Part shown: positions 18,001-61,825 of the stretch, in pieces | Numbering within the stretch: position 1 is the stretch's first letter | How the letters are laid out: each line of letters begins with the position of its first letter | Made by a program: the position numbers and the translations under genes | Assembly: GCA_964520655.1 (NCBI GenBank) | Contig: CAZFNI010000010.1 | Span: 371-64,370 of the forward strand | Length of the DNA: 64,000 bases | Source: an uncultured Planctomycetales bacterium | GTDB lineage: Bacteria; Omnitrophota; Gorgyraeia; Zapsychrales; Fredricksoniimonadaceae | Direction: 5' to 3' | Notes under the pieces: generated by a model | Databases searched by the model: none | What the model was told of the DNA's origin: nothing | What the model saw: the letters and a program-made list of their open reading frames with translations, nothing else

Positions 18001-21000
18001 AACCTGTCATTAAAACCAATGATGACGGCAGTAAAACCATAACACATGAAGGTAAAGACGTTCTGGTTACAATTGACAAGGATGGACAGATATTGAAGGT
18101 TGAAGGAAATCAGACGGCTTTTGCAGCCAAGGATTTTGAAGATACCTTTACACATATTTCTAGAGAATATGCGGAGGCGCTTCATCAGAGGTCCAATGAT
18201 TTTACTAAGCTGGCCCGTCTTTCTGCTGAAGGCGCTAAAGAAGTTTCTGCGATCGATCCAGATGATAAGGATAATGCTGTTGAAAAAGCTGTTGAAAGGA
18301 TCACGAAAGGTCAATCAGCTACAGCCGTTTATCAAGTGGTTGATGGAGTTTATGGAGTTATCACTAATGAAAGAGTTGGCAAGGCGATGTTCAACCGCAT
18401 GATGGTCCATCGCGAAGGCAATGACAAGATCGCCAGAGGGACAGTGATCACGCCGCAAACTTCTTCCACCATTGGTTTTCGCGGAGCGAACCATTCGACG
18501 GCTAGCATCATTGCGTTCTTAAACGATACTGATCAGCAGAAAGTAAGATTGACACCTCAGGAACAAGATATTGTTGATCTAATGGTGACAAAAGGTCTTA
18601 TTGCCAAGAAGGAAGATGGCGTCTGGATGGAATTAAAGAAAGGCGCGGTGTTCGGCGTCTATGTAAACCCAGTCAAGAATGATCCACAGGATATAAGAGA
18701 AGCATATCAGCATGAATTACGCCACAGCATCGAAGAAGTTGATCCTCAATATCAGAGAGACAATGACGCTACCCGTGCAGCATTCGATTCTAAAGCTAAC
18801 GGTGGCGAGGCAAAGGCGGAAGTTCCTGTTTACGATGCACAAGGGAAAGCGCAAGAACAAACGATTAACTTGATGGATGTAGCTAAAGATTTCCTGGTGT
18901 TTAAAGGTTACAGCAAAGAAGATGGTGAACTTATTCGTCGGGAATTGCCGGCATGGTTGAGTGATCTACCGAGCATGCAGCGGGAGATCAGTGATATTTA
19001 CGAACAATTTAAGACGCCTGATGAAATTGTGAAAGCATTTGGTAAAGAAAAAGCTGTAATGATCGTGAAGCTGCTTCCTTTGATACAAAAAGAATATCAG
19101 ACTAAATGGCAGGAGATCGAGCAGGCCTTTGCGGGAAATTATACAAAAGCTAAAGAACGGGCTGTGGTAAATACTCAAACGTCCGCAAAAGATTCTGGAT
19201 TAAAACCGGTCGTTCAATCGATAAGCCCTGCTGGCGCGCTTCCCACTGTCACCATTACAACACCTGCTCGCGTTGCGGCACCAAGCCCGGTATCGATCGC
19301 GCCAATAGCACAGACCAACTCAGCGCCACAAGGACAAGCGGCACAAACACGTTATGTGCCGGCGACAGCATCCCCGAGCGTTCCATTGAAATCCAACGAA
19401 CTCTATGACACCAAGACCGGCGAGATCTTCACGGCGCCGACTCCGGAAGCGGTCGGCGGCACGGCAACAATGCCCGCGCAGGCATTGCCGCATGCGGTCA
19501 TTGTACCTAATAATGCGTTGATGAATTTAGGTTTAAGTGCGGCTTCCGTAAAGGATCAGCCGGAAGCGATCCGTCTGGAGATCACACCTGCGGCAGGACA
19601 AGAAGGGCAATATGTCGGCACAGTGGTGGCCCGCGCGGTTGATCAGACCAGCGGCGATATCTTTGAGATCCCGCATGCGATCATTTATGATAGCAAGACC
19701 AATCAAATAGTACCTGCTGCCCCAGAACCCGTCACGGTCACGGTGGTTAAAAAGACAGGAGAAGCGCAGGCCCTTCCTCAGAAAGTCACGGTCGCTCAAG
19801 CGGCAGGGATCGATGCGCAAGCACCGGTGTTTGAAATGAGAGACGCTCTTGGAGCGCCCGCAGCGTTGATCAAGGATGGTCAAGTCATTGCTGTTTACAA
19901 TAATATTGCAGCACCAGCCGCGGCGCCAAAGCAAATGGAAATAAAGACGGCTGCCGGTCCGGTCAGCGTTACAACGGCTGATCGTTATGAATATGTTCCG
20001 GCAGAAAGATCATGGCGGACAGCCGCGGTTGTTGCAAGCGGTGCCGAGGGCATTGCCGCAGGCAGCGTCATCCGCAATAATTGGATCTTTGCCAATGACA
20101 ATGCCGCGCCGCAAGCTGTCATCCTCAACGGGCACGTTGTTCCTTTGGCAAACAGGAATGTGTCTGAACAAACAGCTCTCATGGGCTTGGCCGCGGGATC
20201 CTCTCAAAAGGGTAATACAGTGACCATCAATGGTCAGCCGGCCGTGATCACGCCAAACGGCGATATCACTGTCCCACTCGCGCAAAAAGAAGCGTTTAAT
20301 TCATTGCCTGTCACAGAGGCGACTTATCGGATGGTCCAACCAGATACGTCCATAGCGCCCCGGGTTGAAGTTCAACAATATCTTGTGGCCAGAACACCTG
20401 AGATCGAAAGTGCTCTGGCACAATTGCAGGCGGCAGAACCGCAAGCGTTCAAGATGCCTCAGGTGCAGCAATCAGCCGACAACGTTGAATATGTCGCTTT
20501 GGCCCCTGATCAAGTCGAGCCCGTCATTCGTGCCATTGCCCAAAATACGTTAACTCAGGCCAATGCATTGACGGCCAAACCTGTTGCCGCCGCAAGGCCG
20601 CAGGTTGCTATGCGGGAATTGACCATTGTCCCGCCGGCGGGATCCGCTGATAAAGATATTCTGCATGTGACCTATGCTGTTCCTGTCCAGGCTGGCAGCG
20701 AAAAAGCAGCTCCCAAGCTTGTGCGCGTGGAAGCGCTGGTGACGGGGACGATACAGAAAGTATTAGAAACTGTTCCCGGCATTGCAACGCCAAGGAATAT
20801 TGACGGCGGACAGCAAGTGATCGATGTGGCCCCGGAATTATTCACGGCGATCAAGCAGGCGGGTATGACCCTGATCCAGTCTGAGGCTGCCGGAAGAACA
20901 GTCGATGTTGCTGCCTTAAGAACCGCATTAATGAATGCCGTGCCCAAAGCGGCTGTGCCTGTATCGCTTCCTGTGTTAACGGAAGTGATCACCCCGGCCG

Positions 21001-24000
21001 AGCAGGTGATGGGTGCATTTCAATTTGCTTTTGGTCAGAAGGCAGCCGAAGCTAGTGCAGTGGTAAAGCCGGAAGCTAATATCGGCGGGATCAGTATTGA
21101 CCGTTTGTTAAGTCTTAGAGAAGACAGCGAAGTTAAAGCGTTCTTAAGCGCGAATAATATCGGTGCTTCTGACATGGATAAGGCCCTTGAGATCGTCCGC
21201 CGGTTAAGTGCGGATCCTGTGGTTGTTAAGGCGAAAGCAGAAGTCAGTCAGCTGCCTGCGGCACAGGCTGAGGCTCGTTTGCGGGAGGTGGCTTTAGCAA
21301 GGTTAAATACAATGGTGTTGGAAAATGCATTACCGGTTGCTAATTTATCGCTTGGGGTTAAGCCGGCCCAGGCAGTGATGCCTGCAGCCCAAGACACAAC
21401 ACCTGCGGTTGAGCCGGTTGCAGCGCCTGCCATTGAACCCGTGGCCCCTGTTCAACAACAACAGCCGCCAGCCGGCGTTGAATTACCGGTCCTTCGCTTC
21501 GTGCCGATGGCTCAGGTTCCTCAAATAGATGTTCCGCAAACCACCGGTGAGATCGTGGATATCAAGTCAGGTCTTGTTTATCCGTCGATGCCAACGCCCG
21601 AGAATAATACGGCGCCAACCGCGGTGGTTGTGCGCGGCGAGCGTTTCTTGAACCAGGTGGGATTGACCCCGACCGCTGGTGATAATCCGCAATTTGTCAG
21701 GATCGAGCTTGAACCAGCCAGCACGGGAACCCAGGAATTTAGAGGTTCATTCCCCATCAGCATCAATGGCAAGGATGTTGCCGCGCCGGTTGTGGTCAAT
21801 ACGGCAACCAATAAGATAAGCTTGGTGTCTAACACCATTGAATTACCTCAAACGGAAGAACGCGCCATCAATGATCTATCCGTTCCTGTCCGTCCGGTCA
21901 TGGTCTTTAATCCTGCTGCTAAGACTTGGGAACGCCGGGATATTGTTGTGAGCGCTCCTGTACAATTGGAGAGCGCCGGCTTGGTCCCGGGGGCTGTGAT
22001 CAAAGAGAATGGGAAAGTATATGCCAGCACCGACAGTAAGGATGTTGTCGCGGTTGTGGCCGAAGATAAGTTGATCAGCATTAAAGACATGCCGGTGATC
22101 ACAACAGAAGTTTCTCAGACAAGAGTTGTCCCGCAAAATCTGCCGGTTTTAACCGATGTGATAGAGCCAGTTTTTGTCAACGATACGCCGGTCGTGCCTG
22201 TTGTCAATACAAAGGCACAGAGACGCGAAGTAACGATCACCAGGCCCGCAGCTGCCAAAGAAACGCCGTCAGGTGTCGTCGCGGTGACCTACTCTTTACC
22301 GATGCACGCGGAAAAAGGTGAACGGGTAACCCCAATACCGGTACGTTTTGCGCTGGCCGCCACAGAGGCTGTGACCACCGCTTTAGCAGAAATGAATATG
22401 TCTCCAACGAAAGGCCAGGAAGCCGGAACACCGGTTGTTTATCTAGCTCCATGGGAATTGGGCCGGGTCATGGCATCTCATCCTGGATTAGCGCAGGTAG
22501 ATAGTTATGCCCAGCAATTCATGTCATTGTCAAATAAAGCAATGGCATCTGACAAAGCCATGTCACCTAAAACAGTGATCGCGGTCGCGGCGGCTTCCTT
22601 AATATCGACAGGCAGCGTGCCTGTCGCAAATGCGCCTGTTGTTGCCCCCGTCATTGAACAGCAGCCCGCGCCAACGTCTGTTCCTCTGAATTTAGTTGGT
22701 GTTAAAGATGTGCCGGCAACGCTGCCGGTAAAAGACATCACGGTCAATCAAGCGATGATCAGCAACACGGGCATGCCAGTGGCTGTTGTAAAAGACGCCG
22801 CGCAGACAGCTGTGGCGGTGGTCATGGATGGTGCTTATGTGCCGATCAAAGATAATGCCGCAGAAGCAGCCTCCGTTGAACGCATGAGCGTGATCGATAA
22901 CGGTGTTGATCATAAGGTCCCAGTCCTTTCTGTGATCAGGAATATGCCGGAAGGATTCATTGCGGAGAAAGTCGTAGCGATCGGGGCGGGGACACTTAAG
23001 CGCGGGGATGTGATCCGTAATAATGTTGTGTATGGCAAAGACAGTAAAGAGGCCAAGGCGGTGATTGTAGACAATCGCGTGGTTCCATTAAAGAATATGG
23101 ATGTGCTTGAGCAAACGGCCTGGAAGGCGCTGGCAGCAGGAACGGCGACAGTCTTAGTTAACGGCGCGACGGTCAAGGTTGCGACCGATGTCGACGGGCA
23201 GAAGGAAGTGGTGATACCTAATAAGATAGACGCGGTGACATCCGCCGCTGTGCCGGTAGCTGAGGTCAAGTATACGCTGCAGACTAATAATGAAACGGTA
23301 AGCGTTGAGCCGGTTTATAAGGTTCAGGCAACACGGGATGTTTTAGCCGCGACGACGGCAACAACAGTTAAGAGCGCTGGTAAAGATCAAGACGGCAAAG
23401 AATACCTGCTGCTGGACCGTGACACAATGCCTCGTGTTGTGCTGAGCGTCGTGGACAACAAGATCGCCCAGGTAAAAGCCCAGGTGGCAAGCGGCGCGGA
23501 CATGGGAGCATTGTTAACACAGGCCATCGCCCAACAACATGATGTGCCCACACAACAAGCTCTGCGCCAGGTCCAGGTCAAGATCGCGGCGCTGACAGAA
23601 ACTTACAAACAGTGGCATCAAGCCCTCGCCGTACAAGCTCCCGGATCAACGATCAATGAATTTAAGACACGCATCTCTTCTCTCGTCAACCAGATCAAGT
23701 TTGTTGATCCAAGAGCAGCAGCTATCGCTGATGTCCCGGCGTTAATGAAAGTCCAGGTTGCTCCCTTGCTTAACCTGGCGCCGGATACCAGTATTCGTTA
23801 CATGCCCATGACCCAAATGCCGGCTTCTTTTAAGGGGACGTTGGATGCTAAAGATGCAGTTGTCGACGTTCAGACAGGGATGGTGTATGCCAGCAGCACG
23901 GATGTCTTCGGCAATATCCAGCCGCAGTCGGTGATCATTCCAGCAAGCGCGATCGACCGTTTAGGATTAAGCAAAGAAACCAAGGGCACATTGACCTCTG

Positions 24001-27000
24001 CGCCGCTTGTGCCGGTGGCAGGAATGCCGGATTTCTTTACGGCCACAGCCAAGGTCAATGTTGCTGATCCTCAAACGGGCGTTAAGACAGAGGTGCCGGT
24101 TGCCTTGACCTTCAATAAATTGACAGGCACCGTCAATGTCGCCAAAGACCAGCCGCGGCAGGAAATGACAGTTGCTCCGGCGTTTATGCTCAATGAACAG
24201 CCGGTCTATCAGGTGGCCCAAAACGGTCAGCCGGCAGCGGCCATCATGCAGGGTGCATCACTTCCAGTCAGCTACAGTTCGACGGATAATAGCTATGCGG
24301 TGACAGTACCGGCGACCGCGCAAGAAACAGCAATGTTTGGTTTATCCGGCACAGAATATCTGATGCCGACAATAATGGAAAAAACATTGGGTACAAATCC
24401 ACAGGCACAGGTTAGCGCCTATGTGCTAGATCTAAATGTACCGGATGTGAAAGAATTCATCGTCAAAATTCAAAAGAGAGCCGACAGCAGCAAGGTTAGG
24501 ATTGTCAAAGACGCCGGCGGTGAACGTGCGTTGATCGCACCAGCGGTATATCGTGCATATGTCGTCAATTCGACCGTTAAAGGGATTGAACAGGCAAGTG
24601 CGGCCCCGTTAAATTCGGCCGCGATCAAACAATTGGAGACGCGTTTACAGAAAGTGATGTTGATGGCGGCTGCGGCACAGGATAAAGATGCCGCTGCGGC
24701 CCTGCGTGCCCTTGAACCTCAGGTTGAACGCATTAGAAATACCCATGAAACGTTGACGTCTCAGGCTGCCGCGGCCCTTAAAGTTGCTCAGAATGCGAAT
24801 GATACACAAATGATCGATGTCTTGGCCCCCATTGTTCAACAGCTCAATGACACAGCCGCGCCGTCAGCCTTACCCCAGCTTAAAGATATCCAGGAGGTAA
24901 CGTTCAATCCCAAGGTCATTGAACAGCAAACGGCATTGAATGACGCGGGTATTTATAGAACGCTCATGCCAGCGATCCGTACCATTGTCAACGCTCCGGC
25001 GGATGCCAGCGATGCGGCCGTGGAACGTTACTTAAATAGGACCGTCAGTGCCAAGGATGCTGCGTCTCAAGAAAAGGTTGCCGCGGTCACAGCTGAGATC
25101 GAGAATGCGCTGGCTAAGACCCTGCCATCTCTAACAGTGGCAGAGCGCAAGAATATTGCCAATATTGCCGCGGGCGGGCGTTTAGAGGTCTTAAAGGGCA
25201 GCAGTAAAAAAGAAGTTGCCGCGGCCATGCAGTTTACTCAAACAGCCAGAACATCACAGCCCAGCCAGCGTTTAAGCGCAGTTGTGAATTTATTCACTTT
25301 TGTCACCGGCCAGCGACCCTCTGATGAAGTTGTCAAGAGCATTGAGAATGTGGTATTAGCTGCTGTTTCCAATACGGGCTCAACAAAGACGCAGTTCACC
25401 AATTTGCCTGAAACATTGCTGTTGCGTGTATTGACAGAGAATAAGGCAACATTGAGTGCTGACCAAGCGGTCAAATTAAAGACATTGCTTGCAAAGAAAT
25501 TGTCAAGGCCGGAACAGCAGAGAGAGTTGCGGAAAGGATTGGAGGAAGTTGAAAAGATCTTGGCTGGCACAGAAAGGTTGGCAAGGGAAGCGGGCAAGCC
25601 GATTCCCGTCGTAAAAGACCAGGCCATGTCTGCCGGCATCATGAAGACCTTAGCTGCCACGGCGTTTGTGTCTGCGCTAAGTTTGACAGGCAGCAGCGGT
25701 AGGAACGATATTCCGGCAGCATCCAAGCAGGATCCGGTTGTTTCCATTATGCTTAGCGGCAAAGATGAGAGCGTCATCCGTCAGGATGTAGCGCGGTATA
25801 TTAAGGCAAGCCCCTTAAGCGATGAACATAAAGCGCGCGCTGTCAGGGTCATGGATCAGGTCTTAGTCCAGGATGATACCGTTAAGACTTTGCGTGAAGC
25901 TGCGGCCAATGCTCCTGAAGGACAAGAAAAGGCCGAGGCTATTGCGCGTTTGACTACTGCCCTTAGCGCTGCGGTTGTGGAAGGGGTAAATCAAGACATT
26001 TTCCGTTCTGTAGAGTTAGCTACAGCTCCTCAGGTGTTGGCTGCGCCAGGGCAATATGTACCGATCGATAACAGACAGTTAAGCTATCGGGAAGCTCCGC
26101 CGCTGCGTACGGGTGAAGCGTTGGTCATCGCTTTGGATCCTCGATCAAAGAGCACAGTTGGGACCGCACTGATCACACCGCAAAGCGAACGTCCTGTGGC
26201 TGAACAGATCGCCGCGATAAAAGCCAATGTAGCGGGCAATGATATCCGTTATTTTGTGGTCTTTGCTTCACCGCAAGGTAAAGTCCCGGCCGTGATGGGT
26301 GCGATAAAAGAAAATTTAGTCAACATTCAAGAACGTCCGGTTAAAGAGAATGCTGTGGTCGTTGCGGCCAATAACAATTCGATCGCCATCAGAACGACCG
26401 GCGGTGAAGAAATTCAAGAATTTGGTGCCAATAAAGAGCTGCGTGTCCGGGCCGCTGGGCATGGCTGGCAGGAGGTCAAGAATTTCGCGCAGGATGTGTA
26501 TGCCCAATTGACAATGCCCAAAGACCAGGCGATGACTGCGGGCCGAGTGGCTCCAGCAGTAAGCAGCGCGCTGGTCAAGGTCACCGAACAACTGGCAACA
26601 GAGCAGGCACAGCAATGGGTCGATATTCTCTTCCCTGTCCAAAAGGCATCCATGACTCAGCGCGTACTGGGTATGTTTGGGGCCGGTACTAAAGAAGATA
26701 TGGTTGTTGCTTCACCATTGACAGGAAGCCTGAGCATGAAGCTGCAGCAGGAAGGATTAACCGGTGATCATTTGATCCAGGCTGTGGCAGAGATCACACA
26801 GGTCATCGGGAAAGATCCATCTGTTCGGAAATTCACCGGGGAGTATCAGGCTTCTTTAGGCCGGCAGATCGATCCATTTAATAAAGTAAAGAGCGCTCAG
26901 GCAAAGGAAGCGGTTATTTCTAATGCCAAAGCTCTTTTAGCCCATGTGTTCGCGCAGGCGTTGAAAGAGAGGATCGGTAAGACAGAACCGACATTGTCCA

Positions 27001-30000: not shown

Positions 30001-33000
30001 TTGGCGCATCCGTCGTGAAGTGGCAGGATACACCGGATGTGAGAAATGCCCTTGAGGTCATCAAGGCAGCAGGGGAAGATATTTCGGATGTCACTTATGT
30101 CAAGGGTGAATACACGGCTCCGCTAAAACCATCAGCCCAGATCGCGATCGTGCAGTTGGCTACGGCGTTTGACCAGACAATTGAGCAGGCGGCGCAAGGG
30201 CGGCCTGTTTTGGCGGCAACAGCTCAGCAGATCAGGAACCTGGCGCGCGTGGCTATGGTGGCCGGCTATAAGGCAGAAGAACCTGATTATGTGGATCATG
30301 TGATCGCCCTCATGCCGCAAATTGAGCAGATCGAACGCGCGGTCTTTGCCTTACCGCAGGCACAGCTGGTTTTGAAGGTTGTGGAATATAATGGAAAGCC
30401 GGCGGATATTTCTTCCGCCCGCATCGTTGTTGACCGTTTAAAGCAATTTGAAACCACAGGCCAGATCGAGCCCGCCCAGGTCAAAGCGGTCTTAAATGTC
30501 GCGCCGAAATTAACGAAAGCCCAGCTGGATGACATGTTGAATTTACGCCAGGTCAGCCAGATCGCGTATCAGACGGTTCGCCAGGAAATGGCCATCTTAA
30601 AGGGCAGCCTCCCGGCAAAAGAGATCATTCAAAACAGAATTGCACAGTTGCTGCCGGCGTCGGTTAGAGGCGCGGCAGATATTAGCCGCAGCATTGCCGA
30701 TGCTGTTGTTGCCCCAGGTGCCGATCAGGTGGAATTGCCGGGCATCAGCGAAGCTGAACACAAGGTCATGACCGCGATCATTAATGATCCGCAGATCAGC
30801 GCGATCGGTTCTTTGGCAAGCGTGATGGATATGGGCGCAAAGAAAGCCGAAGGTTCCGTCGATCAGGCCCAGGTTTCTACAGCCATAAAAGTAATGGCCG
30901 CAGCCGCGGCTGCATCAACGGTGCTGTCGATCCCCAGCGCAACATCTCAACGGGAAATCAATCAGGTCTCACCGGCTGTTGTGGCGCCGGCACCCGTTAA
31001 GATCAGAGAGGTTGTGGCTCCGGTGATGGTGGACACAATGGTCCCGCAGGTGATCGCGCCGACCCAGACAAGATTTGACGTCAGCACGCCGGTCATTGAC
31101 AGGTTCAAGGGAGGGGTTGTCATCGTCGCTGTTGATGTGACAACAGGCAAACTAAGCGGCATTGCGCAAGTTGTCCCCGGCATTGACGGGCAAGTGGAAT
31201 CCTTCAAGAAAAGCCTTCCGAATGCCGAGAGCGTAAAATATGAAGTCTTCTATTCAGGTCCGCGTCCAAACTTTGTCAGCACGGTGATCAATAAGCTGGA
31301 TATCTTAAAGTCAGAAGCCAGACAAGTTGGCGGCGCATCTGCTCCGGCCCAGTTCATGGTGAAGGCCAATGAACAAGGGCTGTATGTTGTGAACTCTAGA
31401 AATGATAAGATCCATGAATACCGCTACAGCAGCAAAGGTCTGGAAAAAGCCGATCAAGCCATGGCTGCGGTCGCAGAAGTGGTTATAGAGAAAGGGATCG
31501 CGCCGGAAATATTGGCCAGGGGAGGCGCGGAATTAACCGCTGCATTAGGATCTATCGGGTTGACCGGGAATGAATTAGATGCCGTGAAGTTATCCGTTAA
31601 TCAAGTCAATCAGGACCGTCCGGCTGTTACGGCCGCGGTACAAAGAATTGAAACCGCCCGTGCTACCGGCGATACCCAAGCGGTCACGGCCGCTGTTGGG
31701 GCCTTAAATGAGATGTATCAAGGGAAGGTCCCAGAGGCTGTGTTAACAGCGCCGACGGTGCGCGGCATTCGTCTGGATGACGGTACCAGTGTCCCGGCGG
31801 TGTATAATGCCCAGCAAAAAGCCTATATCGCGGTTGCCCAAACACCTAAAGCACGCATCGCGTTGAATGCCGGCATCATCGAAACGACCTATCGCATTGT
31901 GCCGGCAGCTAAAGGCGACTCAAAACCGGAAGCTGTGATGTACACCTTGGAATCAACGCCAGCCGTCAACAAGGCCTATGCCCAGGTGATCGCGTCGTTA
32001 ACGGATCAAGAAAGAGTACAGTTGCCTCCAAGTACAGCCAAAACGATCAAGGCGACCCCACAATTGTTAGGTCGTATCTTCAATGTTCAGATCGCCAATG
32101 CTGTTAATGAACTGATCGCCGGAAAATCCTTCGAGAGCGTCAATGACGGCCGTATGGGGGCATTGCTCAATCAAGCGTTGGCCTTGGCTCAGGAAAACAA
32201 TGATACCGAAACTGTTGCCAAGATCAATGAACTTCAACCTCGCATTATTTTACTGCAAAAAGCGTACAGCGAATTAAATGCCCAAAGCGCGTTAGCCCTC
32301 AAAGTCGCATTATTGAGCAAAGATCCTCGAACGATCGCCCAGGCCCAGGCGGTTGTCGACCAATTGACCCAAATGAACGCCGACGGCCGCTACAGCAAAG
32401 ATGTGTTGACGCAATTGAAAGATGTTCAATTCCCGAAGATCAGTAAAGAAATGCTGGCTGTGTCGGTTAAGCTCAATGGGGCCAGCGCCTATACGGTTGT
32501 GATGTCCGCATTGCGCGGCCTGCTTGGGTTAAAGACTAAGGGCACGGATGCCCAGGATGAAGAAGCCGTCAGTCAGGCCATGAAAGATCCCGGCAAGAAT
32601 GACCAGATCACCGCGGCTATTGAAGAAGAATTAAGATCACTTGGCTTGACCGAGGGCATTAGCGATATTGCCATCGCCGTTGTCCAAAGCGGTAATCTGA
32701 AATTACTGCAAGGCATGACCAAAGAAGAAGCGCGTGCCTATGAAAAGATGATGCGCAGCCCGAATAATCAAGCGGTGGTCACTATTCTGGATTTCTTCGG
32801 ATTCAAGGGTGACGAGATCTTCGCCGGTGATAAAGCGATGGCAGTAAAGCCGCAGGAAAAAACGGCTGCCAGTATGCGCGAGATGTTCAATTTAGGCGCG
32901 GTAGGCAAATACATTGCCCAAGCCATAGGCCAGGGATACAAGACCAACAAGACCAGCGTGATCGCTTTTGATCCGGATGATCAAGCACAAATACGCGCCC

Positions 33001-36000
33001 TGAAAGACATGGTCATCACGATGGGCCGTAAACCGCTGGACATCACCTCGGCCAATATCACCAAGGCGGCAACCGATCCTAAGGCGTATGTGTTCTTAGT
33101 GCCCAATAACAAGGATATCCGGCGTGAACTGGCCAATGATCCAGAGGCCATGAAGGCGCTGGAATTGATCACCGATGTCCATGATAACAACGTCCGCACG
33201 GGAAGCGAGCTGTTCGCCGCGCAGGAAAAACTCATTAAAACGAATTATGTCGATCATTTGACCGGGATCGGCACGCAGGCGGAACTCAAACGCAGCGTCC
33301 AGGACATGATCAAGACGATGATGATGGGGACTTCATTAAGGTCCCGCGTCGCCCCGGCCAAAGAACCAACAGAGCGCAATGTTGCCTTCACTTATATCAT
33401 GTTCGACGGCAATAAATTCGGTTCGACCAATGTCCTCTTCGGGTTTGAGAATGGGGATGCGGTACTGGCCAAATTAGGCGAGATCGTTCGCGGCAATTCC
33501 CGTGAATCAGATATCTTGGTCCGCTGGGCGGGGGATGAATTCGTGATCGTTTTGCCGCAAGCCGGCAGAGAAGAAGCGGCCGCCTATTTGACCAAATTGA
33601 CTAAGGCCATTAACGAAGCCTCGTTCGTGCCGGAAGTCTTTGGCCGCAGCGCGGTATTAGAGAGATTACAGGCGAAACAGAATGATGACCTCTCCGAAGG
33701 CGACCAGGAAAAGATCCGTACCGGTTTGATCGCCCAGCTGAAGATGCAGAATCCCGGCAAGGAAGTCCCGGCGGATATGACCACTGAAATGGCTGTCAGG
33801 GCGATCAAGGCAGATCAATACGCCTTTGACCGCTGGATCGTTTCCATCACCGCCGGCGCAGCGGTGGTCAATAAATCTATTGAAGAGATGAAAGACAAAG
33901 ATCCAGAAAGCCTGCGACTGGAAGTGGAAAAAATGGCCGATACCGCTCTTGAAGGCGCTAAAGGCAACGGCAAAAGCTTTGATATCGTCAAAGACGGACA
34001 GCATTTTGTTTCCAATGAACCAACGGTGCTGGCGTTTGAGTCCAAAGAAGAACCTGTCGCGTATGCCGACCGCGTGGCTGGCCGCGGTGTGCTCGAAGGG
34101 TTAATGGATGAATCCATCCGCTGGGCGGAGAAGAATCATACCGTTCCTGTGCTGACCTATACTACAGGCGATCAGCTGGCAGGCATTAAAACATATTTGG
34201 CTAAGGAACATCCGGATAAAAAAGTTCGGAGCATCTATGATGCGAATTCGATCGGCGCGCTGGTCAATAATCCAGCGCTGTCACAGCAAGTGATCGTCAT
34301 CCCTGAGACGATGAAATTCAATTATCTAAAAGATTCTCCAGAGCTGCTGGCTGATTTTGAACGCATCACCGGTGTGCATGATGCCAAACTAACCGCTGAG
34401 GCCTGGTATGAATCTCAGCGCCGGGAGATCGATACTCCGGGGACAGACTTGTTGACAGGCTTGAAGAATAATGCCGGATTGAATCAAGCTGCCAGACAAT
34501 CCTTGAAGGAAATGGGCCGTATTATCGAGGCCGGGACCCCGGCCCGCATGGCCGCGGTTGTTGTCACCCTGCGTGATTTTAAGGCCGTCAATGACCTCTT
34601 CGGACATCATGCCGGCGATGCAATTTTAACGCTGGCCGGAAATTCTTTGAAAGCAGCGTCGCGCTTGACGGACAGCGAGGGACGTTTGGGCGGCGATAAA
34701 TTTGCCGCGATCCTGCCGAATACGGGAGAAGAAGGGATTGGCGCTTATGTCAGCCATGTGGTTGAACGTTTTAAGAAAGATCAGACACAGGATGCAGAAG
34801 TCGCCAGGATCTTAAGCAGAGACAATGTGGCTGACGTGTTGACACATATCTTGATGGATCCAACCACGACGGAGGAGAAAAAGATCAAGGTCTTGGGATG
34901 GGTGAAGACGCAGTTGAAGATCCAGAACCCCGGCAAAGAAGAGAAGATTGATGCGATTACAAAACTTTGGGATGCGATGAATGTGATCGACGAAAATAGC
35001 GACTTGACGTTCGACCGCTGGGTGATTGAATTAACGGCGGGCGCAAGCGGGATGACCCAGGTATTGCCGCAGAAGATCACCGATAAAGACGGCCGCCAGA
35101 TCTATGAGAAATTGATCACGGAAGCAAAGACCGCTGTTGCCCAGGCACAGAAAACAGGGGAGGTCGTAAAGCTTGGCCAATTTGATATCGCCTTAGAGAA
35201 AGCTCAGGCCGCCAAGCAGGAAAGCAGCGACAAGGCCCAGATCGCACGGGAAAAAGCACAGGCGGCCTCAGAAAAAGCTATCGAGAATGCCCGTGAGGCC
35301 CGCGATAGAGCGCAGATGGCTGCATATAATTTCAGTGCCCTGCGCAGCGCGGCAGTCCGTGAAGGCAAGTCCTACTTTAGTATATTGAAGGATGCTGTTT
35401 CAAACGGCCGTTTTGCCCAGAAGGCTAAGGATTACGGGGAAAATATCCGCGCCAAGATCTTGGATAATTCCTCCATCGCCAGGATCTTAGCGGCGATCGA
35501 GCAGCATAGGGCCTTTTTGAATGACCACCTGCAGGCCGTCAGAGGCCAGGTATTTAAGAAAGACGGCCAGGTCGGTTCTTCCGTCCAGACTAGCGCCGAT
35601 TCTTCGCAGGATCCCAATGACGCCACATGGTTTGAATATTTGATCAAGAAGATCAAGGATGCCGCCGATCAGGTGGTCTTTATCCTGGCGCGCCGCACCG
35701 CTTCATTCTTTAAGCCGGTATTCACCGCGGCCAATAGTTTCGCCGAGAACGTGGATTATGCGGCCTTAAAGGGCACCCGCGACATTGTCCGGGGCGTGCT
35801 GGCCTTCTTTGATCTGAATTCTGACGCCAAGATCGTTGACGTTTTTGCCGGCATCATTTCCCGTAATAAGGAAGCTTTGGCCAAGGCCAAGAACTTGCGC
35901 ACGATGCTCGTTGAGATCATTGAGATCGTCAAGATCGGGGACAATGACAACGAGGAGCTGCAGGAAGTTCCGGCCGATGCCGCGCAGATCGCCAACACTT

Positions 36001-39000: not shown

Positions 39001-42000
39001 CGGTCAGGTCTTTAAACGCAAAGGCCGCAGTAAATGGGAAGAACTTACGGGTGAGCGCGCCAAACGCGTTATCTATACCACCTACGAAGAGTTCTGCTCC
39101 AGCGGCGAGAAAAGACACAGCGTCGAGGGCTATGTCGGCGTTCCGCTCTTTATGGCTGCAAAATAATCTGCGTGATGTGGGTGGCATGACCTCGCCCCTG
39201 TTAGGAACAGGGGCCGGCCTGGGAATTGTTCTGTTGGGGCTTGGTTTAAGAGCGCGCCGTCTCAGTGGCGCGCTTGGGGCAGGCGGATATTGGGGCAATG
39301 TCAGTGACGACCTGGAGAAACAGATCAGGTCCGTTCTACCCCGGGCCAGGGACATTAAAGGCCGTCGCCTGCCGGTGGAATTCAACGGCGTGCCTGTTCA
39401 GCACAAGTATTTCGAAAAAGAGTTTTTTGAGAAAAAAGATGTTTCATTTATCTGGGCAGCTAAGAGCCGAGGGAAACTGGTCATTTATTTTTCTTCATAT
39501 GGGCTCTTTACGCAATTGACCCGAGAGTTCCCCCATGAAAAGGAGTTAGAGAAAGCGCTCGAGATGGTTTATTACCACGAGATCAGGGAACAATATTATT
39601 TATCACGCGGGTGGGGGCGCGGCGACAGCCACCGGTTTGCCGTGACTGGCACCCGTATCCAGTATCTGCGTGAGAAGGACATTCTCTCTAGAATAGAATC
39701 CCTGATCGATCCTCTGCCAGCAGCAGCTAAGGACCATGTGCGCGTCCACATTGGCAAGAATGACGCCGAGGAGCTGGATCTAGGCGCTGCGCGTGCCGAT
39801 GCGATCGTACGGCAGCAAAAGGGACGAATCAATATAGCTGTCGGCGGCGGGGAAACAGTCCCGGCACTCCTGGATGCCTGGGTGAGGTTGATCGCAGAGA
39901 ATCTGCCGCTCTACAAAAGCATCATCTCCAGGATGCATGTGTTCATGGTGTATGAATCCAGGAACAGCAACACGCATCAGGTGGTGATTGATAGATTCAT
40001 CACCCCGCTTAAGGCCATGGGCATCAGCGTTGACAGCAAACAGATCCATGCCGTAAATTTACAAAACGCGCATACGCTTGAGGAATACAAAAAGATCGCG
40101 AAGGATTACACCATCGCCATGAGGAATTCGTTAGGTCCCAAGGACCAGTTCGATCTGATCTTAAGCGGGGTTGGCCAGCACGGTGAATTCGCCGGTTTTG
40201 AATCCAATTCACCGGTCATTTATGCCGCCAAGCCGGTGATGATCGCCTTTGAGCGGCGTGACGGTGTTTTGATGACCTCACTGACACCGGATGTGTTCCG
40301 TAAGGCCAGGAACATTATCCTGGTATTGATCGGGCCCCATAAGCGCGGAGCGCTGCTGGATATGATCGCCCCCGAAGGGTCCATCGGTCAGTCCCCGGCC
40401 AGGGTGATCCATGAACAGTACTGGGGCCAGACGGACATTTACACCGATCGTTCTTCCAAGCGCTGGCCGCAAAAAGAATTTTTATTGGATGATGGGACTG
40501 TATTTTTCGCGGATGTGCATGAGGGGCTTAAAGGATCGGATGTGGTCATTTTTATTCCTGGCTTTCATGACCATAATTATGACCAGCAGTTCCGCGGCCT
40601 GCCATATGCCGAGACCATCGTTGTGCGCCGCGACGATCTGCCGGTGAGATTAGGCAAAGATGAGGTGATGGCGTATTACGCACAAAAGATCAAGGCGGTC
40701 ATCAAATATTATCAGGACCAAGGCCGCCGGATCAAAGTGGTGACGCATTCTGACGGGAATGAATTCTTTGGATATTTCCTGGCGCATGCCGCCATGGATA
40801 TTCAGCCGATCGCCGCGCTTGACCGCATCAGCCCATGGAATGCGGCGGATATCGCTTTTGTTATTGAGCGGTTTGCTCAACATAAGCTGGGCCCCGCGGC
40901 TTTTGGGATCGGTTATGTCTCCCCATTGCTGGCATCGATCATGAGCTCGTCCTGGGGATGGTTGCCGATGCTTGGGCCCGCGGCCAATGAAATGCTGCGC
41001 TCATTCATCGCTTCGAACATGGATGCCTTCAGCAGCCTGTTTGACCAGGAGGATGCCACGTTAAGCGGTCAGCTGCGCCGTGATGACCTGGAGTCATCCA
41101 TGGAGATCCCGCTGGAATTGCTGTTCGCGGAATTGTATGCCGTGTCTCATCAAGACAAGGAAGTCACGACCAAGGCACAGGAACGTCTGATCGCCTGGGG
41201 AACGTTCGTGACCACGATCGCGCCTAAAGAGGACAATATTAGCAATGTCAAACGCATCGCGGAGGAACATCAACGATTTATCAGCATGAAAGGGAAAGGG
41301 GAACTTGTTGAATTATCAATCGATCCTAAAGGCGGCAGTTCATTTACGCAGGCCCATTTTATTCACCGTTTTGCGGCGCGGGTGAATGCCTTGATCGCCA
41401 GATTCCCCGGCGATGAAACGATCGTGCCTTCTGCGGAGACAGCGTTTGAAGGGATACAGGCAGCCTTAAGCATATCAAGAGAGAAGGGCCATACATTACT
41501 GCGTATTCATTTTGGTCAGGATGAGATCGACGTGCGGGCGCTTGCGGCTAATGTGGAAGATGCACAGATATATATTGATGATCTCACGACCCACCAAAGG
41601 GTTGTCAATTACACCATTGACCAAACCCGCCGGTATTCAAGCTCGGTGACGCTGCGTTTTAAGGACGGTGAATTACCCGCGGCGTTCTGGATCAAGATCG
41701 GGCAGGGGATCGAGAACACCATCGTGACAAGAGGGGCGGTCGATAAGAAGCTTCGTCCGTATTCATTCTTTGTGACTAAGGATGCCCATGGTCAGCCGTT
41801 CCCGCAAAGTCCAAGAACCGCGGAAGAAGCGTATGGGCTGATGCAGTCATATCGGATATCTGACGATGAAACCCAGGACCATGCCATCAGCGCGTCAGGA
41901 CAGATACTGGCAAGCACGGTCAATAATCATTTTGCTGCCAGGTTTATCCGGCATGCCGATCTGATCCAAAAGATCAACCGCTATTTAGGCCGCGGCGACC

Positions 42001-45000
42001 CGTTGGGAGCGCCGCTGGCGGTGCGCGAAAAAGGTCGGGTAAAATGGTTTGTGGAACCGGACCGTCTGGTGACCATATTATCGCAAGAACTTTCCGAATC
42101 AGAGAGAATAAGCGTTGTTGAAGCGCTTTCCGTTGTCCGCAGCTTTCTCCTTCATGAGTCACGACCGACGGAGAAAGAGGGTATTGCTGCCCAGATCACT
42201 GGGTTTATCCAGGAAGAAGAGATATCCAGAACACGTGACGCTTATGCGACGATCCAGGCGGCCGCGCGTCAGGGCGGTATCAAGACCCTGCAGCAGCTGG
42301 AGAAAAAATATCGCAAAGACCAAACCCTGATGTTCAGATTTGAACACCGTACCGCAGAAAATGTCATTATTTTGTACCGCTGGCCAACGCTCTTTGACGT
42401 ACCGGAAGTCCATAAGGTTCACAATGATATTTGGTTCAAATTCCCCAAAGAGCAGATGTCGCTTTTGCAGGTATACGCTCAGATCCAGAATTATCAGCGC
42501 GGGCATGTTGTGGCGGAAGTTTTTGATTTAAATGTCCCTGGCCGGCAGTACATTTACGCGCCGATCTGGAGCGTGCGGGTCAATGTGTCTCGTGATCTGG
42601 CCCGTCGACTGATGTTTTCTGATGTGGCAGGAACGATGTTTCAAACAGTAGATGCCTTGACCAATGACAAGACGCTTGACGGCGTCGTATCCGTTGACGG
42701 CCAATGGACGTTTAATTATGCCACGGGTCTACCGACAACCAAAGTCGCCAATCAGGACGCGGTTGCCGGGTATCTTGTCAAGGGCAAGCCGCTCAAAGGT
42801 ATTGATGATGGGTTGGTCATGACCCAGGCGTACCAGCAGCACCGCGACAGGATACGGTTCTTAAGAACATACAGCCCGATCACCGCGCTTGGCCTGCATT
42901 GGAAAAAAGGCGCGTTCAAATTTAATTTTGGTGAGATTCCCGATGGAAGATACCCTGGGGCGCATGCGATCATCATGGCCTACCCCTGGCATGATTTTAT
43001 GACCATTGGCAAAGGGCGCTTCTCTGAGAAGCTTTCCAGGGTAGTGATCGTGCCTTCGTATCGTTTTGGCATTGACCGCATCGCTTCACCGGTCGATCCG
43101 GATAAGGAAGAATTGGTCATTCGTGTCGCGGTTCCCGGGTTCAAGCAGGCCTTGCCGCGCAATAACCCGCTGCGCCGTCCTTTTGTGAAGGTTAACAAGG
43201 ATCTGATCCTCAGGAATGGGAATAATCATTACCGTGTTCCTGAGATCTTTAACATGACCGCGGTCGGACATGCCAAAGCATTGCTTAAACGGTATTTAGG
43301 GTTGGATACCATCACCTTGGCATCACTGCCTGAGCACAACGGCATGAAGCTCACCGTCGCTGTATTAGGTGACCATGAGACCCGCTCATTTAAACCGTGG
43401 ATCAATTTTGGGGTGATCAAAGCTCTGCTTAAGAACCGTCAGATCAATACGGTGGTCACCGCAACGACAGGAAATCAGGGTATCGCGCTGGCCTGGGCCG
43501 TGCGCATGCTGGCTAAGACCATGAAGAGGGAAGATCTGAAAGTGATCGTCTATGTCGGTGTTAATACGTCAGAAGCGAAGATCGCGCGCATGCGGGAGTT
43601 CGGCGCCATCGTCATTGGGGATCCTTCCCGCAACCCGGATGTTGTTTTCGAGAATTATGAAGCAGCTTATCAGGCGGCGCTTAAATTCTCCCAGATCCCC
43701 GAGATCAAGGAAAAGACATATTTTGTGGAACATGCCAACCGTGCGGCGATCTTGGGGTATGCCGCATTAGGATCAAGGGTTTTGGAGATCTTGCGTTCAC
43801 AGGATAACGCAGATCATTTGGCTATTATTGTACCCGTCGGGGCCGGAGGTCTGGCCAGCGGCTTTGCAGTTGCGTCACGATTGGAGAAAGATCCGACCAA
43901 GGTGTATATAGTCCAGACAACACGGACAAAGCATGCGTACATCTCGTTGTTGACCGGTAAGAGGGTCGTATTTGCCATGCCTCAAAGTCAAGAGTACGAC
44001 GAGAACGGCATCGACACTAAGAGTCTTGAGCCAATGGCATTAAAGACACTGCGCACTACCGCTGATGGTTTGGCGTTAGTTGACCCGACGCTGATACCTC
44101 AGACGATCGCATATTATCGCGCCCAGGGGATCATTGCTGAGGGGGCCGCGGTATTGCCATATTTGGCGCTGGAGGCCTTGAAGGAAGAATTGGCAACCAA
44201 AGGCATCACCCATGTTCTTTTGGTCGCAACCGGCAGCAATGTCAGCGATGCTGCGCAGAGTTCTCGGGACATCATGAGGCATGAAAGGGCGGCGGCACAT
44301 CGTTTGTACCAGGCCACAAGGAATTTGGAAAAGAAGCGCGCCAAGAACGGGCTGATGCCGATCGTCTCTGTTGGGGCGGCCACGTTTGAGCAGGGCAGGA
44401 GCGTGCATACGGCTTTCAATGATTTTAGCGTGCACGCTGAGGGGAATCTTGTTTTTGATGTGTTGGCCAGTCAGGTTAAGAAGGCACATCCAGCACTTCA
44501 AGAGCCATTAGACCGTCTCTATGCGCTAGTTTCAATGAGGAAGCTGTCCCGTGATCAGACGTCATTCAAACGCCTGGTCAAAATATCCGCGCAATTGGGC
44601 CATCCCATGAAGGGGCTGGATGTGATCGTGACATATGAACCTTGCCCGAGCTGCTTTAATCTCCTTTTCTCCGTCGGTGTTCGCAAGGTATTTTATATCG
44701 ACGCGCATCCTAATGATGAGTTCGCGCAAAAGCGCGGGCATGCCGGCCTTATGAAGGTACAGTTGGAAAGCTTGGCCAGGAAAAGCTTGATGAACCAAAG
44801 GTATAAGCACTTAGTGGCGCAGGACCAGATGGCATTTAGCGATGATCAGCGGGCAGCGCAGGATGTCTTTGCCAATTCATTCAGGCAATGGTTCAAAGAT
44901 CATTTGAATGCCAGCATTGCCGATGTCAGGGGGATGAAAGAACAAATCGGGAATGTTAGCGGCGCAATGTTTTGGAAGATGCCGCGCGGTGACAAGGGGA

Positions 45001-55867: not shown

Positions 55868-57247
55868 TCAGTGACGATCATTCATTTTTTTTCGCAATTC
55901 GGCGAGGTCTTTCTTTAGCGCGTCGATCTGATTCTGCTGTTGTTTGATGGCTTCGATCAAGGCTCCGACAAGGTTCTCCATAAAAACGTGTTTAATGCCT
56001 TTTTTATCCGTAAAGACAAGTTCCGGGAACACTTTTTCCACGTCCTGGGCGATCACGCCCAAAGATCTTTTTTTGTCTTTCTTCCAGGTAAAGGTAACGC
56101 CTCGCAGCGCTCTTACCTTATTTAAGGCATCGGTGATAGGCGTGATGTTCTCTTTCAAACGTTCATCGGAGGGGGCGCCGTAATAATACCCGCCGCTTAA
56201 GTTGTAAATATCTCCGTCAACGCCCATGTCGCCTAAGACATACAAGCGATAAGAAGCGTTCGGTGCCGCGCCGACCCCGACGCTGCCGCTTAAGGTGGTT
56301 GTGCCGACAGCAACATTTAAGGCTCCGCCCGCAATGGTGACCCCGGCATTGAAAGTGGCCAGGCCGGTGGTGGATAATGTTCCCCCGACGGTGGTATTGT
56401 TGGATAGGGTGGTAACGCCCGTGACACCAAGTGTGCTATTGACCTGCGTGGCCCCGCCCAGGGTTGTTGCTCCGGTGACATTTAACGTGCTGTTGACCGC
56501 GGTAGCGCCATTTAAAGTGCTTGTGCTTCCGGCGGTGAATGTGCCGGGACTGGTGACAGAAAGGGCGGTGGAAACATTGGCTGTGGCAAGGGTTGTTGTC
56601 CCGCTGACACGGGCATTGCCGGTGACATCCAGTTTCTGGGTTGGAACCATGCCGATCCCAAGTCCCGTTGAGGTTAGCCGCATTTGCTCCGCGCTATTAG
56701 TGTAAAAGGTAAGTGTATCAGCCGCGGGGTAGCTTAAATAAGTCGTTGTTCCGCCAAGATACAGGTTTGGGTTTGCGGCACTTAAGATCATATTGCCGTT
56801 GACGTCGAGTTTCTGAGCAGTAGCACCGGCGGGATTGATGCCCAGATTGCCGTTTGCCTCAAGGGTCATCTGGTCAGCGCCGTTGTTGATCCGAAAGTGT
56901 ATGGCCTGCCCAGCAGGGCGGTTAAAGTACAAGGCTTGGTCAGCCGTGCTGCTGCGGATATGCGCATTGGCGCAAGTCCGGTCGCCGGCCAGTCCTATTC
57001 CCACAAAACCCGCGCAGCCGGTTGCTTCTCCGATAGCAACATTGGTCGCTACCGTCACGTTTGAGCCGGCGTTGACGGTGCCGACACCAATATTATTAGC
57101 CGTTAAGATGTCATAATTGCCTGTTGGTGCCGGATAATAGGTGTTGATCGTATTGGATCCGGCAGCTGATGCCGTTAAGGGGGCCGCGAATACCGCCGTT
57201 AACAGGAACATCAGTAGTCGTTGTTTGGTCATCCAGGAATATGCCAT
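55868..57247 (-). CDS. secreted tail-fibre-like repeat protein with C-terminal Peptidase_S74 intramolecular chaperone domain (paralog 1)
   Basis: Signal peptide, then Thr/Gly/Asn/Ala-rich beta-repeats (TGATTLGGATQVNSTLGVTGVTTLS...). The last 100 aa, SDERLKENITPITDALNKVRALRGVTFTWKKD..., match the SDxRLKxNI auto-cleaving chaperone signature (nt 55871-56170). Confidence 0.7.
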   Translation of the reverse strand: MAYSWMTKQRLLMFLLTAVFAAPLTASAAGSNTINTYYPAPTGNYDILTANNIGVGTVNAGSNVTVATNVAIGEATGCAGFVGIGLAGDRTCANAHIRSSTADQALYFNRPAGQAIHFRINNGADQMTLEANGNLGINPAGATAQKLDVNGNMILSAANPNLYLGGTTTYLSYPAADTLTFYTNSAEQMRLTSTGLGIGMVPTQKLDVTGNARVSGTTTLATANVSTALSVTSPGTFTAGSTSTLNGATAVNSTLNVTGATTLGGATQVNSTLGVTGVTTLSNNTTVGGTLSTTGLATFNAGVTIAGGALNVAVGTTTLSGSVGVGAAPNASYRLYVLGDMGVDGDIYNLSGGYYYGAPSDERLKENITPITDALNKVRALRGVTFTWKKDKKRSLGVIAQDVEKVFPELVFTDKKGIKHVFMENLVGALIEAIKQQQNQIDALKKDLAELRKKMNDRH

Positions 57248-61514: not shown

Positions 61515-61733
61515 GAGTTTTAGACTTGCAGAAGGTTGCGATTAGCTGCGAAGCAGCTAAAAGGGGATTATTAAGGGGAAAGATTGTTTCTCCTTAAGGG
61601 TAGCGGAAATTATGGTAGGAGGGGTTTGACAGTCAGGACAGAACGAAGTGATGTCGTGACGCCAGAAGGGGAACCGTAGGTTCCCCTAATGGAAAATGAG
61701 CCCCCCGCAGAAAGAACGTAGAAGGCTCATTTT

Positions 61734-61805
61734 GCGCCCGTGGCCTAATGGATAAGGCAGCAGCCTCCGGAGCTGCTGATGCAGGTTCGAATCCCGCCGG
61801 GCGCG
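61734..61805 (+). tRNA. tRNA-Arg (anticodon CCG)
   Basis: Cloverleaf read by hand: acceptor GCGCCCG/CGGGCGC, D-arm GCCT-AATGGATA-AGGC, anticodon arm GCAGC-CTCCGGA-GCTGC (U33, CCG, G37), variable TGAT, T-arm GCAGG-TTCGAAT-CCCGC (one A.C mismatch), discriminator G. No encoded CCA. Confidence 0.85.
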
Positions 61806-61825
61806 TTTAAATTCAAGGAAAGCTC

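Follow-up and report, generated by a model that had tools for sequence, protein, structure and literature searches.

What might a tandem pair of GGDEF domains do in the interior of a bacterial giant protein? The question is raised by a 64,000-nucleotide (nt) stretch of DNA, here called the window (GenBank assembly GCA_964520655.1, contig CAZFNI010000010.1, positions 371 to 64,370 of the forward strand), from an uncultured bacterium deposited as a member of the Planctomycetales and placed by GTDB in the Omnitrophota. About three quarters of the window is taken up by a single plus-strand open reading frame (ORF) of 16,333 amino acids (aa), whose sole stop, according to the ORF list and the translation, is the terminal one; a preliminary description of the sequence had pointed out two GGDEF-type motifs within it, AGDEF and GGDKF. 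Translation places both in frame in this ORF, 1,161 nt apart, and the features around them are as follows.

nt 186-49187, plus strand: giant ORF, holding both GGDEF units
nt 33129-34067 (aa 10982-11294), plus strand: GGDEF unit 1, with helical stalk, core with AGDEF, insertion and C-terminal third (paralogue alignment, Pfam, model, Foldseek)
nt 33501-33512 (aa 11106-11109), plus strand: unit 1 inhibitory site (I-site) RESD, on the canonical RxxD column, five residues ahead of AGDEF
nt 33528-33542 (aa 11115-11119), plus strand: unit 1 motif AGDEF (sequence, alignment)
nt 34326-35246 (aa 11381-11687), plus strand: GGDEF unit 2, with stalk helix, core with GGDKF, insertion and C-terminal third (Pfam, model, Foldseek)
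nt 34662-34673 (aa 11493-11496), plus strand: unit 2 I-site RLTD (sequence, alignment)
nt 34689-34703 (aa 11502-11506), plus strand: unit 2 degenerate motif GGDKF (sequence, alignment)

Profile hidden Markov models recognise both units with scores well past their cut-offs: Pfam GGDEF (PF00990, gathering cut-off 23.8) gives 58.6 bits (E 8.6e-16) for unit 1 and 69.0 bits (E 5.3e-19) for unit 2, and NCBIfam TIGR00254 (cut-off 37.4) gives 58.7 and 62.6 bits. E-values beyond the threshold, which the preliminary description had named as its refutation, were thus not obtained, and its observation stands. When the units were compared with PDB sequences by phmmer, unit 1 matched 34 and unit 2 matched 44 solved GGDEF chains, PleD, WspR, DosC, DgcZ and SiaD among them. 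AlphaFold2 models of both units have a predicted local distance difference test score (pLDDT) above 90 over the core and the insertion, and Foldseek searches of the PDB with these models returned diguanylate cyclases only, with WspR, PleD, SiaD and DgcR on top (E 7e-12 for unit 1, 1.4e-11 for unit 2). Because the target-normalised template modelling (TM) scores on isolated GGDEF domains reach 0.80-0.86 for unit 1 and 0.73-0.79 for unit 2, both modelled folds are structurally complete, and the claim of two complete tandem folds is borne out. The interval originally assigned to them, 33240-35060, holds both motifs, but it stops ~60 residues short of the end of the second fold. We regard the structural description of the region, as two GGDEF folds with stalks and helical insertions, as close to certain.

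The feature that sets these units apart from the canonical domain lies inside the fold. Aligned with 20 canonical GGDEF domains, both units carry a stretch of ~70 additional residues, set between strand beta4 and the helix behind the GGDEF hairpin, and none of the 20 has this insertion. Its position, and that of the rest of the fold behind it, are as follows.

nt 33633-33833 (aa 11150-11216), plus strand: unit 1 intradomain helical insertion, 67 aa (alignment, model, relatives)
nt 33834-34019 (aa 11217-11278), plus strand: unit 1 C-terminal third of the fold, with WIVSITAGAA strand and ADTALEGAKGNGK helix (alignment, model)
nt 34800-35018 (aa 11539-11611), plus strand: unit 2 intradomain helical insertion, 73 aa (alignments, model)
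nt 35019-35198 (aa 11612-11671), plus strand: unit 2 C-terminal third of the fold, with WVIELTAGAS strand and EAKTAVAQAQKTGE helix, phosphate-binding residues lost (alignment, model)

The ITAGAA of unit 1 and the LTAGAS of unit 2 align on the canonical SIGxA strand, and ADTALEGAKGNGK of unit 1 aligns on the canonical ADxALYxAKxxGR. Consequently the GG[DE]EF motif and the SxG strand lie far apart, 97 residues in unit 1 and 105 in unit 2, whereas 113 of the 134 spacings taken from 120 database GGDEF proteins are of 30-49 residues. In the models the insertion folds as three to five helices (H236-295 in model 1, at pLDDT 92-95; H226-291 in model 2), followed in both by the expected strand and long helix (E308-318 and H327-347 in model 1). 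The Pfam match in both units covers only profile positions ~3-112 of 161. The preliminary description had seen a conserved linker here, a homologous segment of ~80 aa following each fold (QLKMQNPGKE...FDRWIVSITAGAA in unit 1, QLKIQNPGKE...FDRWVIELTAGAS in unit 2). Both segments are present and homologous, with QLKMQNPGKE at nt 33735-33764 and QLKIQNPGKE at nt 34911-34940, each within its insertion; alignment and structure place them not after the fold but in it, as the helical insertion plus strand beta4, so that what was taken for a linker is an insertion together with the C-terminal third of the fold itself.

How do the units compare with known cyclases? With the canonical stalked enzymes (WspR, PleD, DgcR, SiaD) they share the fold (Foldseek E ~1e-11, TM up to 0.86), the DxLTG lead-in, N335 and D344 (PleD numbering is used throughout), the helical stalk, and an RxxD I-site that lies five residues ahead of the signature. 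They differ from them in the ~70-residue helical insertion, in the motifs AGDEF and GGDKF, in the absence of D327, E371, K442 and R446 from unit 2, and in their setting, which is an intramolecular tandem in a 16,333-aa protein rather than a position behind a REC, PAS or GAF sensor. The stretches that precede the units are as follows.

nt 32925-33128 (aa 10914-10981), plus strand: region upstream of unit 1, possible small alpha/beta element (model 1 residues 1-68, pLDDT mostly <65)
nt 34119-34325 (aa 11312-11380), plus strand: region upstream of unit 2, possible small alpha/beta element (model 2 residues 1-69, pLDDT 47-71)

Model 2 has elements E11-14, H17-30, E35-38 and E57-62 in this region. 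There are no Pfam matches in the regions upstream of either unit, and no significant similarity between the two. A REC-like domain of the WspR/PleD kind was considered at these positions and rejected, given that there is no Pfam Response_reg match at E <= 1, that the regions are dissimilar and that their pLDDT is low.

The two units are related by an old duplication. BLASTP of unit 1 against unit 2 yields one alignment, aa 10982-11294 against 11381-11687 (~310 aa), with 29% identity and E 3e-30, and self-comparison of the giant protein finds no third GGDEF copy. At the DNA level blastn leaves a single patch of 31 nt with 87% identity, over QLK[MI]QNPGKE. The low protein identity, together with this one remaining patch, points to an old tandem duplication; a recent one is ruled out by that blastn result and by Tandem Repeats Finder, which reports nothing in the window. 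Dating the event by a nucleotide dot-plot, as had been proposed, is therefore unsuitable. Against this background of divergence, QLK[MI]QNPGKE and FDRW, both of them in or beside the insertion, are almost unchanged between the units.

Whether either unit could synthesise cyclic di-GMP (c-di-GMP) depends on residues whose roles are known from PleD: D327 binds metal, K332 stabilises the transition state, N335 and D344 contact the guanine, and K442 and R446 contact the phosphate, while R359/D362 (the RxxD motif) and R390 form the I-site. We assigned the corresponding residues from phmmer and multiple alignments; at R446, where the alignment column was shifted, the states come from manual remapping to the position four residues after K442 in AKxxGR.

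D327: D in unit 1, T in unit 2
D329: N in unit 1, R in unit 2
K332: G in unit 1, K in unit 2
N335: N in unit 1, N in unit 2
D344: D in unit 1, D in unit 2
R359/D362 (I-site RxxD): RESD in unit 1, RLTD in unit 2
Signature motif: AGDEF in unit 1, GGDKF in unit 2 (E371 is K)
R390: K in unit 1, R in unit 2
K442: K in unit 1, Q in unit 2
R446: K in unit 1, E in unit 2

Both units share N335, D344, R359, D362 and R366, along with the second Gly of the motif, and the comparison with PleD and WspR that had been suggested for the I-site finds RxxD on its canonical column in each. The motif AGDEF keeps both acidic residues, and GGDKF has lost the second. Judged by its sequence, unit 2 is very probably dead as a cyclase, because D327T, E371K, K442Q and R446E remove metal, catalytic and phosphate residues; the earlier statement that its catalytic Glu had been replaced is thereby upheld and extended. 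Unit 1 appears only mildly degenerate. Its main defect is K332G, with H340F and D336V as further differences from PleD, and it could retain weak activity. Its AGDEF motif had also been called degenerate, which is not necessarily so: unit 1 keeps D327, N335, D344, the D-E pair and K442, and the AGDEF cyclase VCA0965 of Vibrio cholerae is active both in vitro and in vivo (PMC3974145).

These residues bear directly on one alternative, that the pair is an active diguanylate cyclase module in which unit 1 synthesises and unit 2 serves as an allosteric product-inhibition partner only, unit 1 pairing either with unit 1 of a second giant protein or with unit 2 in an asymmetric complex. The metal, guanine and phosphate residues retained by unit 1 (D327, D/E370, E371, N335, D344 and K442) would allow this, as would the competence of AGDEF in VCA0965, and a stalk helix precedes each unit as it does in dimerising cyclases. 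What makes us consider such a module rather unlikely is that unit 1 is without the transition-state residue K332 and carries H340F and D336V besides, that synthesis needs two competent half-sites, of which unit 2 cannot provide one, and that dimerisation of an anchored 16,333-aa protein is unproven. Judged by its residues, the GGDEF pair cannot supply two competent half-sites for c-di-GMP synthesis.

For a pair without two competent sites, the most likely role would be the binding of c-di-GMP at the RxxD sites. Degenerate GGDEF domains that act as c-di-GMP receptors are known, PelD, PopA and SgmT being examples, and they are recognised by catalytic residues that are gone while RxxD and R390 are kept. 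Unit 2 shows just this combination, and unit 1 has RESD together with K at R390; since unit 2 combines a dead active site with a retained I-site, the receptor or scaffold role proposed for it at the outset is reasonable. We therefore favour, with confidence a little better than even and by analogy with such receptors, a reading in which the pair serves mainly as a regulatory switch that binds c-di-GMP and lies in a cytoplasmic part of a giant multi-enzyme protein. In the switch that we envisage, c-di-GMP intercalated at the I-sites would either cross-link the GGDEF domains or shift their orientation, and the changed relative position of the domains would signal to neighbouring parts of the giant polypeptide. 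The models for such a mechanism are product-inhibited PleD and WspR and degenerate-GGDEF receptors such as CdgA or PelD, and unit 1 may add weak local synthesis of c-di-GMP.

CdgA of Bdellovibrio offers a functional comparison: its degenerate GGDEF domain binds c-di-GMP (Kd ~2 uM) and acts in bacterial predation (PMC3271064). Receptors of this type share with unit 2 the loss of catalytic residues and the retained RxxD I-site, and the action of CdgA at the prey-contact pole of a predatory bacterium is an ecological parallel to the predatory or episymbiotic Omnitrophota. The domain in the window differs in sitting in a giant polypeptide, with a near-intact paralogue beside it and an extra insertion, and the binding here is predicted.

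Might the ligand be another nucleotide? The two domains could in principle make or sense one, as a Hypr-GGDEF cyclic GMP-AMP (cGAMP) synthase or as a sensor of guanosine triphosphate (GTP) or guanosine tetra- and pentaphosphate ((p)ppGpp). A degenerate GGDEF that senses GTP is known in PdeA/CC3396, the PDB holds PleD structures with ppGpp and pppGpp (9g85, 9g86), and a region near the C-terminus of the giant protein resembles, by eye, the SpoT/MESH1 hydrolases. Hypr-GGDEF enzymes (GacA-type) carry Ser or Thr in place of the guanine-specifying Asp at the D344 position, which stays Asp in both units; the metal and phosphate ligands that GTP binding would require are gone from unit 2; and the C-terminal HD similarity is not significant. 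On balance a nucleotide other than c-di-GMP is very improbable.

We searched 1.84e9 representative sequences by HMMER with a profile of the two units, which gave 346,359 GGDEF matches, and examined the 150 that were listed. The same insertion is found in five proteins among these 150.

P0121: 1008 aa, from ENA; two insert-bearing units
P0122: 1885 aa, HPN56380.1, 'diguanylate cyclase, partial [Candidatus Omnitrophota bacterium]'; takes up the whole of a 5.7-kb contig; three insertion copies
P0126: 2096 aa, from Logan; signal peptide; two units
P0132: 1034 aa, from Logan (L084, 113-3217); two GGDEF units with degenerate motifs, the insertion being in the second
P0226: 1409 aa, MBF0511833.1, 'GGDEF domain-containing protein [Candidatus Omnitrophica bacterium]'; one insert-bearing unit with GGEEF, and a GGEEI motif upstream

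The insertions conform to the consensus K[IV]xxA[IV]xxQ[LFM]xxQ, a variable loop, then [FL]x[RK]W[VI][VI]xx[ST]AG, and the Pfam GGDEF match of the relatives ends at about position 115 of 161, as in the window units, to which they are 21-34% identical. Tandem arrays of two or three GGDEF units occur in four of the five (P0121, P0122, P0126 and P0132). In every protein examined, a unit is most similar to the other unit of the same chain (54% identity in P0121, 34% in P0126, 29% in the giant protein), a pattern that reflects either repeated duplication or concerted evolution. At aa 571-966 of P0122, the insertion occurs twice in succession within one GGDEF unit, with a half-GGDEF ('RWVSTSGQEGEDFAISIPG') between the copies, and the sequence of this doubling indicates an internal partial duplication within the domain.

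Most of the relatives keep GGEE[FIL] and an intact DxD metal site, and most insert-bearing relatives are probably active cyclases on that account. As GGDEF cyclases need two GTP-loaded half-sites, an intact tandem can be an intramolecular dimer, and in relatives with both units intact the tandem would probably act as an intramolecular cyclase dimer. The substitution K332G recurs in both units of P0126 and in P0226, whose GGEE[ILF] motifs are otherwise intact; the subfamily may thus tolerate the loss of K332, a point in favour of an active unit 1. P0132 (motifs GGKEF and NGTTSEEI) is the only relative degenerate like the window pair. Its first unit is the best match of window unit 2, with 34% identity and E 9e-21 ('TRLTDSLARLGGKEF' vs 'SRLTDSEGRLGGDKF') and a nearly identical I-site context (RLTDS..RLGGKEF vs RLTDSEGRLGGDKF). 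In an alignment that runs through the insertion, the second unit of P0132 matches window unit 1 at E 2e-13. To judge from these sequences, a Lys in the acidic pair may be a variant that recurs and is selected.

Some database matches resembled the window pair only superficially. The top scorers of the full-unit profile (153-188 bits) are generic two-GGDEF proteins with summed scores and the normal ~40-residue spacing, and a metagenome match of the window units (L081) proved to be an ordinary 345-aa GAF-GGDEF protein without the insertion. We also note P0123 (2393 aa) and P0124 (3887 aa), both from JGI and named in their source 'two-component system cell cycle response regulator' and 'poly(A) polymerase', very large proteins in which tandem canonical GGDEF pairs without the insertion recur next to metallopeptidase-like (HExxH) modules. 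Insert-bearing and usually tandem GGDEF units form a small subfamily that is so far found only in large or giant proteins.

Conservation across so old a duplication also bears on the view that both domains are evolutionary relics without a nucleotide ligand, left only as structural spacers in a long scaffold. The giant protein contains at least two other old internal duplications, one of aa 6389-6797 with aa 7104-7768 (nt 19350-20576 vs 21495-23489; 31% identity, E down to 1e-13) and one of aa 8229-8372 with aa 10741-10873 (nt 24870-25301 vs 32406-32804; 26% identity, E 3e-6). Such a history would suit relics, as would the abundance of old, diverged internal domain repeats in long Omnitrophota proteins (65% with a repeated Pfam domain) and the fact that partner c-di-GMP components are not seen nearby. 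Relics would not be expected to keep N335, D344, R359, D362, R366 and the second motif Gly in both copies at 29% identity; the near-invariance of QLK[MI]QNPGKE and FDRW points to continued selection on ligand-contact and insertion residues, and P0132 has a very similar Lys-substituted motif and I-site context. We accordingly hold it improbable that the pair has decayed to spacers. The copy at aa 10741-10873, as an observation apart, sits just upstream of GGDEF unit 1.

Several points weigh against a c-di-GMP switch. Binding of c-di-GMP is predicted from the conserved RxxD and R390 and from nothing else. Unit 1 may be a functional cyclase, in which case the emphasis would move from sensing to synthesis. 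The insertion starts a few residues past the I-site residue R390 and plausibly modulates the I-site, an idea whose only basis is the known topology of GGDEF domains. The cytoplasmic placement comes from a crude hydropathy scan of the giant protein, which finds weak hydrophobic segments (aa 275-293, aa 466-484) on the N-terminal side of the GGDEF pair and a strong pair of segments (aa 12792-12884) on the other; this location is compatible with the cytoplasm but no proof of it. The giant protein and the 15 kb that follow it gave no PilZ, EAL or HD-GYP match, and no local c-di-GMP circuit is therefore visible. An HD-GYP phosphodiesterase at the C-terminus of the giant protein was considered and ruled out, as the GYP motif is missing and the HD match is below the cut-off.

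Finally, no orthologue of the giant protein was found in scans of the protein database, GTDB representatives and JGI metagenome contigs with queries from its GGDEF region. The 710-aa pair, as query of a word-indexed search of 5.8e9 proteins, brought up generic GGDEF proteins only (best 61 bits, at most 31% coverage), the giant protein itself not being in that set; a scan of GTDB genomes with the GGDEF-region query found no orthologue of the module, nor did JGI metagenome scans with a four-sequence insertion alignment and with the two window units. An insertion-only profile gave no matches in the indexed database, where it also missed the known relatives, so its sensitivity there is limited.

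What surrounds the pair in the giant protein is a set of enzyme-like modules, all on the plus strand of the ORF.

nt 543-737 (aa 120-184): N-terminal Peptidase_C39-like domain (Pfam 31.2 bits, cut-off 22)
nt 39810-40415 (aa 13209-13410): Glucosamine_iso/6-phosphogluconolactonase domain (Pfam 58.9 bits)
nt 43326-44234 (aa 14381-14683): pyridoxal phosphate (PLP)-dependent PALP domain (Pfam 97.1 bits)
nt 44361-44696: sub-threshold cytidine-deaminase-like match (Pfam 20.2, cut-off 25)
nt 48603-49010 (aa 16140-16275): weak C-terminal HD region (Pfam HD 17 bits, cut-off 22; PDB E 0.2-0.7)

No obvious signal peptide was seen upstream of the Peptidase_C39-like domain. The SpoT/MESH1-like motifs that can be picked out by eye in the HD region are ..AH.....PY..HP.., LLHD..EE and DRxDN. 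A CARDS-toxin D2 beta-trefoil match at aa 6114-6172 (nt 18525-18701) is likewise sub-threshold (21.5 vs 26 bits, E 2e-4). Base composition changes along the gene: the first ~20 kb has a G+C content of 0.43-0.48 and a strong GC skew of 0.13-0.23, and window positions 20000-64000 have a G+C content of 0.50-0.54 with a skew mostly <0.1, which suggests that the N-terminal third of the giant gene is compositionally distinct.

The genes that flank the giant ORF are ordinary chromosomal ones (glmS, trmB, a DD-carboxypeptidase gene, dsbA, pyrB, pyrC, fpg and tRNA-Arg). Downstream of it come genes for a DNA-alkylation repair enzyme, a BamE/DUF3192-like protein, TrmB, the DD-carboxypeptidase, DsbA, an L27-like protein and GlmS. 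The best GTDB matches of this GlmS are Candidatus Omnitrophota metagenome-assembled genomes at only 56-65% identity, and an origin of the giant protein in the Omnitrophota is probable; neither it nor the alkylation-repair enzyme has an exact database match, and the window contains no rRNA or other marker gene. Two adjacent paralogous genes of ~460 aa on the minus strand (55868-57247 and 57266-58648) each end in a Peptidase_S74 domain (73.6 and 45.6 bits), the intramolecular chaperone of endosialidase, tail-fibre type. At 61733-62299, tRNA-Arg(CCG) is directly followed by a SLOG cluster-4/lysine-decarboxylase-like (LOG family) gene (139 bits).

The preliminary description had called c-di-GMP modules inside a megaprotein unusual, but West-Roberts et al. 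(2023) have already reported GGDEF domains for many giant proteins of Omnitrophota and also for giant proteins of actinobacteria. Nielsen & Lui (2026, bioRxiv 10.64898/2026.06.07.730766) list 5,761 Omnitrophota proteins of at least 10,000 aa; among proteins of this size class 65% have a repeated Pfam domain and 80% are singletons, and their nucleotide tandems are described as 'dissolved'. The giant ORF shares with the proteins of these two studies (the 'Archaeovorins' of West-Roberts et al. and the long proteins of Nielsen & Lui) an N-terminal peptidase, C39-like here and C39 or S8 in the Archaeovorin type, embedded metabolic enzymes and GGDEF, as well as ancient internal repeats with decayed DNA similarity and the status of a sequence singleton. 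With its 16,333 aa it does not reach the length of the West-Roberts set (>30,000 aa); it falls under the 'long protein' definition of Nielsen and Lui (10,000 aa or more) and is similar in architecture to their C39 group. SecA-DEAD, glycosyltransferase, HEAT, NUDIX and dockerin domains were not detected in the giant protein (Pfam, E <= 0.01), and a feature of the Archaeovorin majority, one or more PilZ genes immediately downstream, was not found at the giant ORF.

What is already known, then, is the GGDEF family, its degenerate receptors and the presence of GGDEF domains in Omnitrophota giant proteins. As far as the texts are searchable, neither West-Roberts et al. (2023) nor Nielsen & Lui (2026) describe the insertion, the pairing in tandem or the states of the motifs, and the insert-bearing tandem subfamily with these motif states appears to be undescribed within the searchable literature.

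Both of the relatives with an organism name (two of the five, P0122 and P0226) are assigned to Candidatus Omnitrophota. A broader proposal, which we put forward as tentative, is that insert-bearing tandem GGDEF units are an Omnitrophota-associated cassette, an obligate intramolecular dimer that would make or sense c-di-GMP locally and need no oligomerisation, with the insertion as a new I-site-gating or coupling subdomain. Intact pairs would make c-di-GMP and degenerate pairs, as in the giant protein, would sense it, while the insertion would gate the I-site or couple it to neighbouring enzyme modules. An obligate intramolecular dimer would suit a membrane-anchored, single-copy giant protein that cannot easily homodimerise.

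A practical consequence holds for the whole subfamily: as the Pfam model spans two thirds of insert-bearing GGDEF domains, automated annotation under-reports their extent and invites their misreading as a domain plus linker. If the cassette proposal is true, a helical insertion beside the inhibitory site, in GGDEF domains that repeatedly pair within one chain, would answer the dimerisation requirement in a new way. For the Omnitrophota, whose giant proteins are largely unannotated, a built-in c-di-GMP cassette would then be a concrete and testable regulatory element for the coordination of their dozens of enzyme modules.

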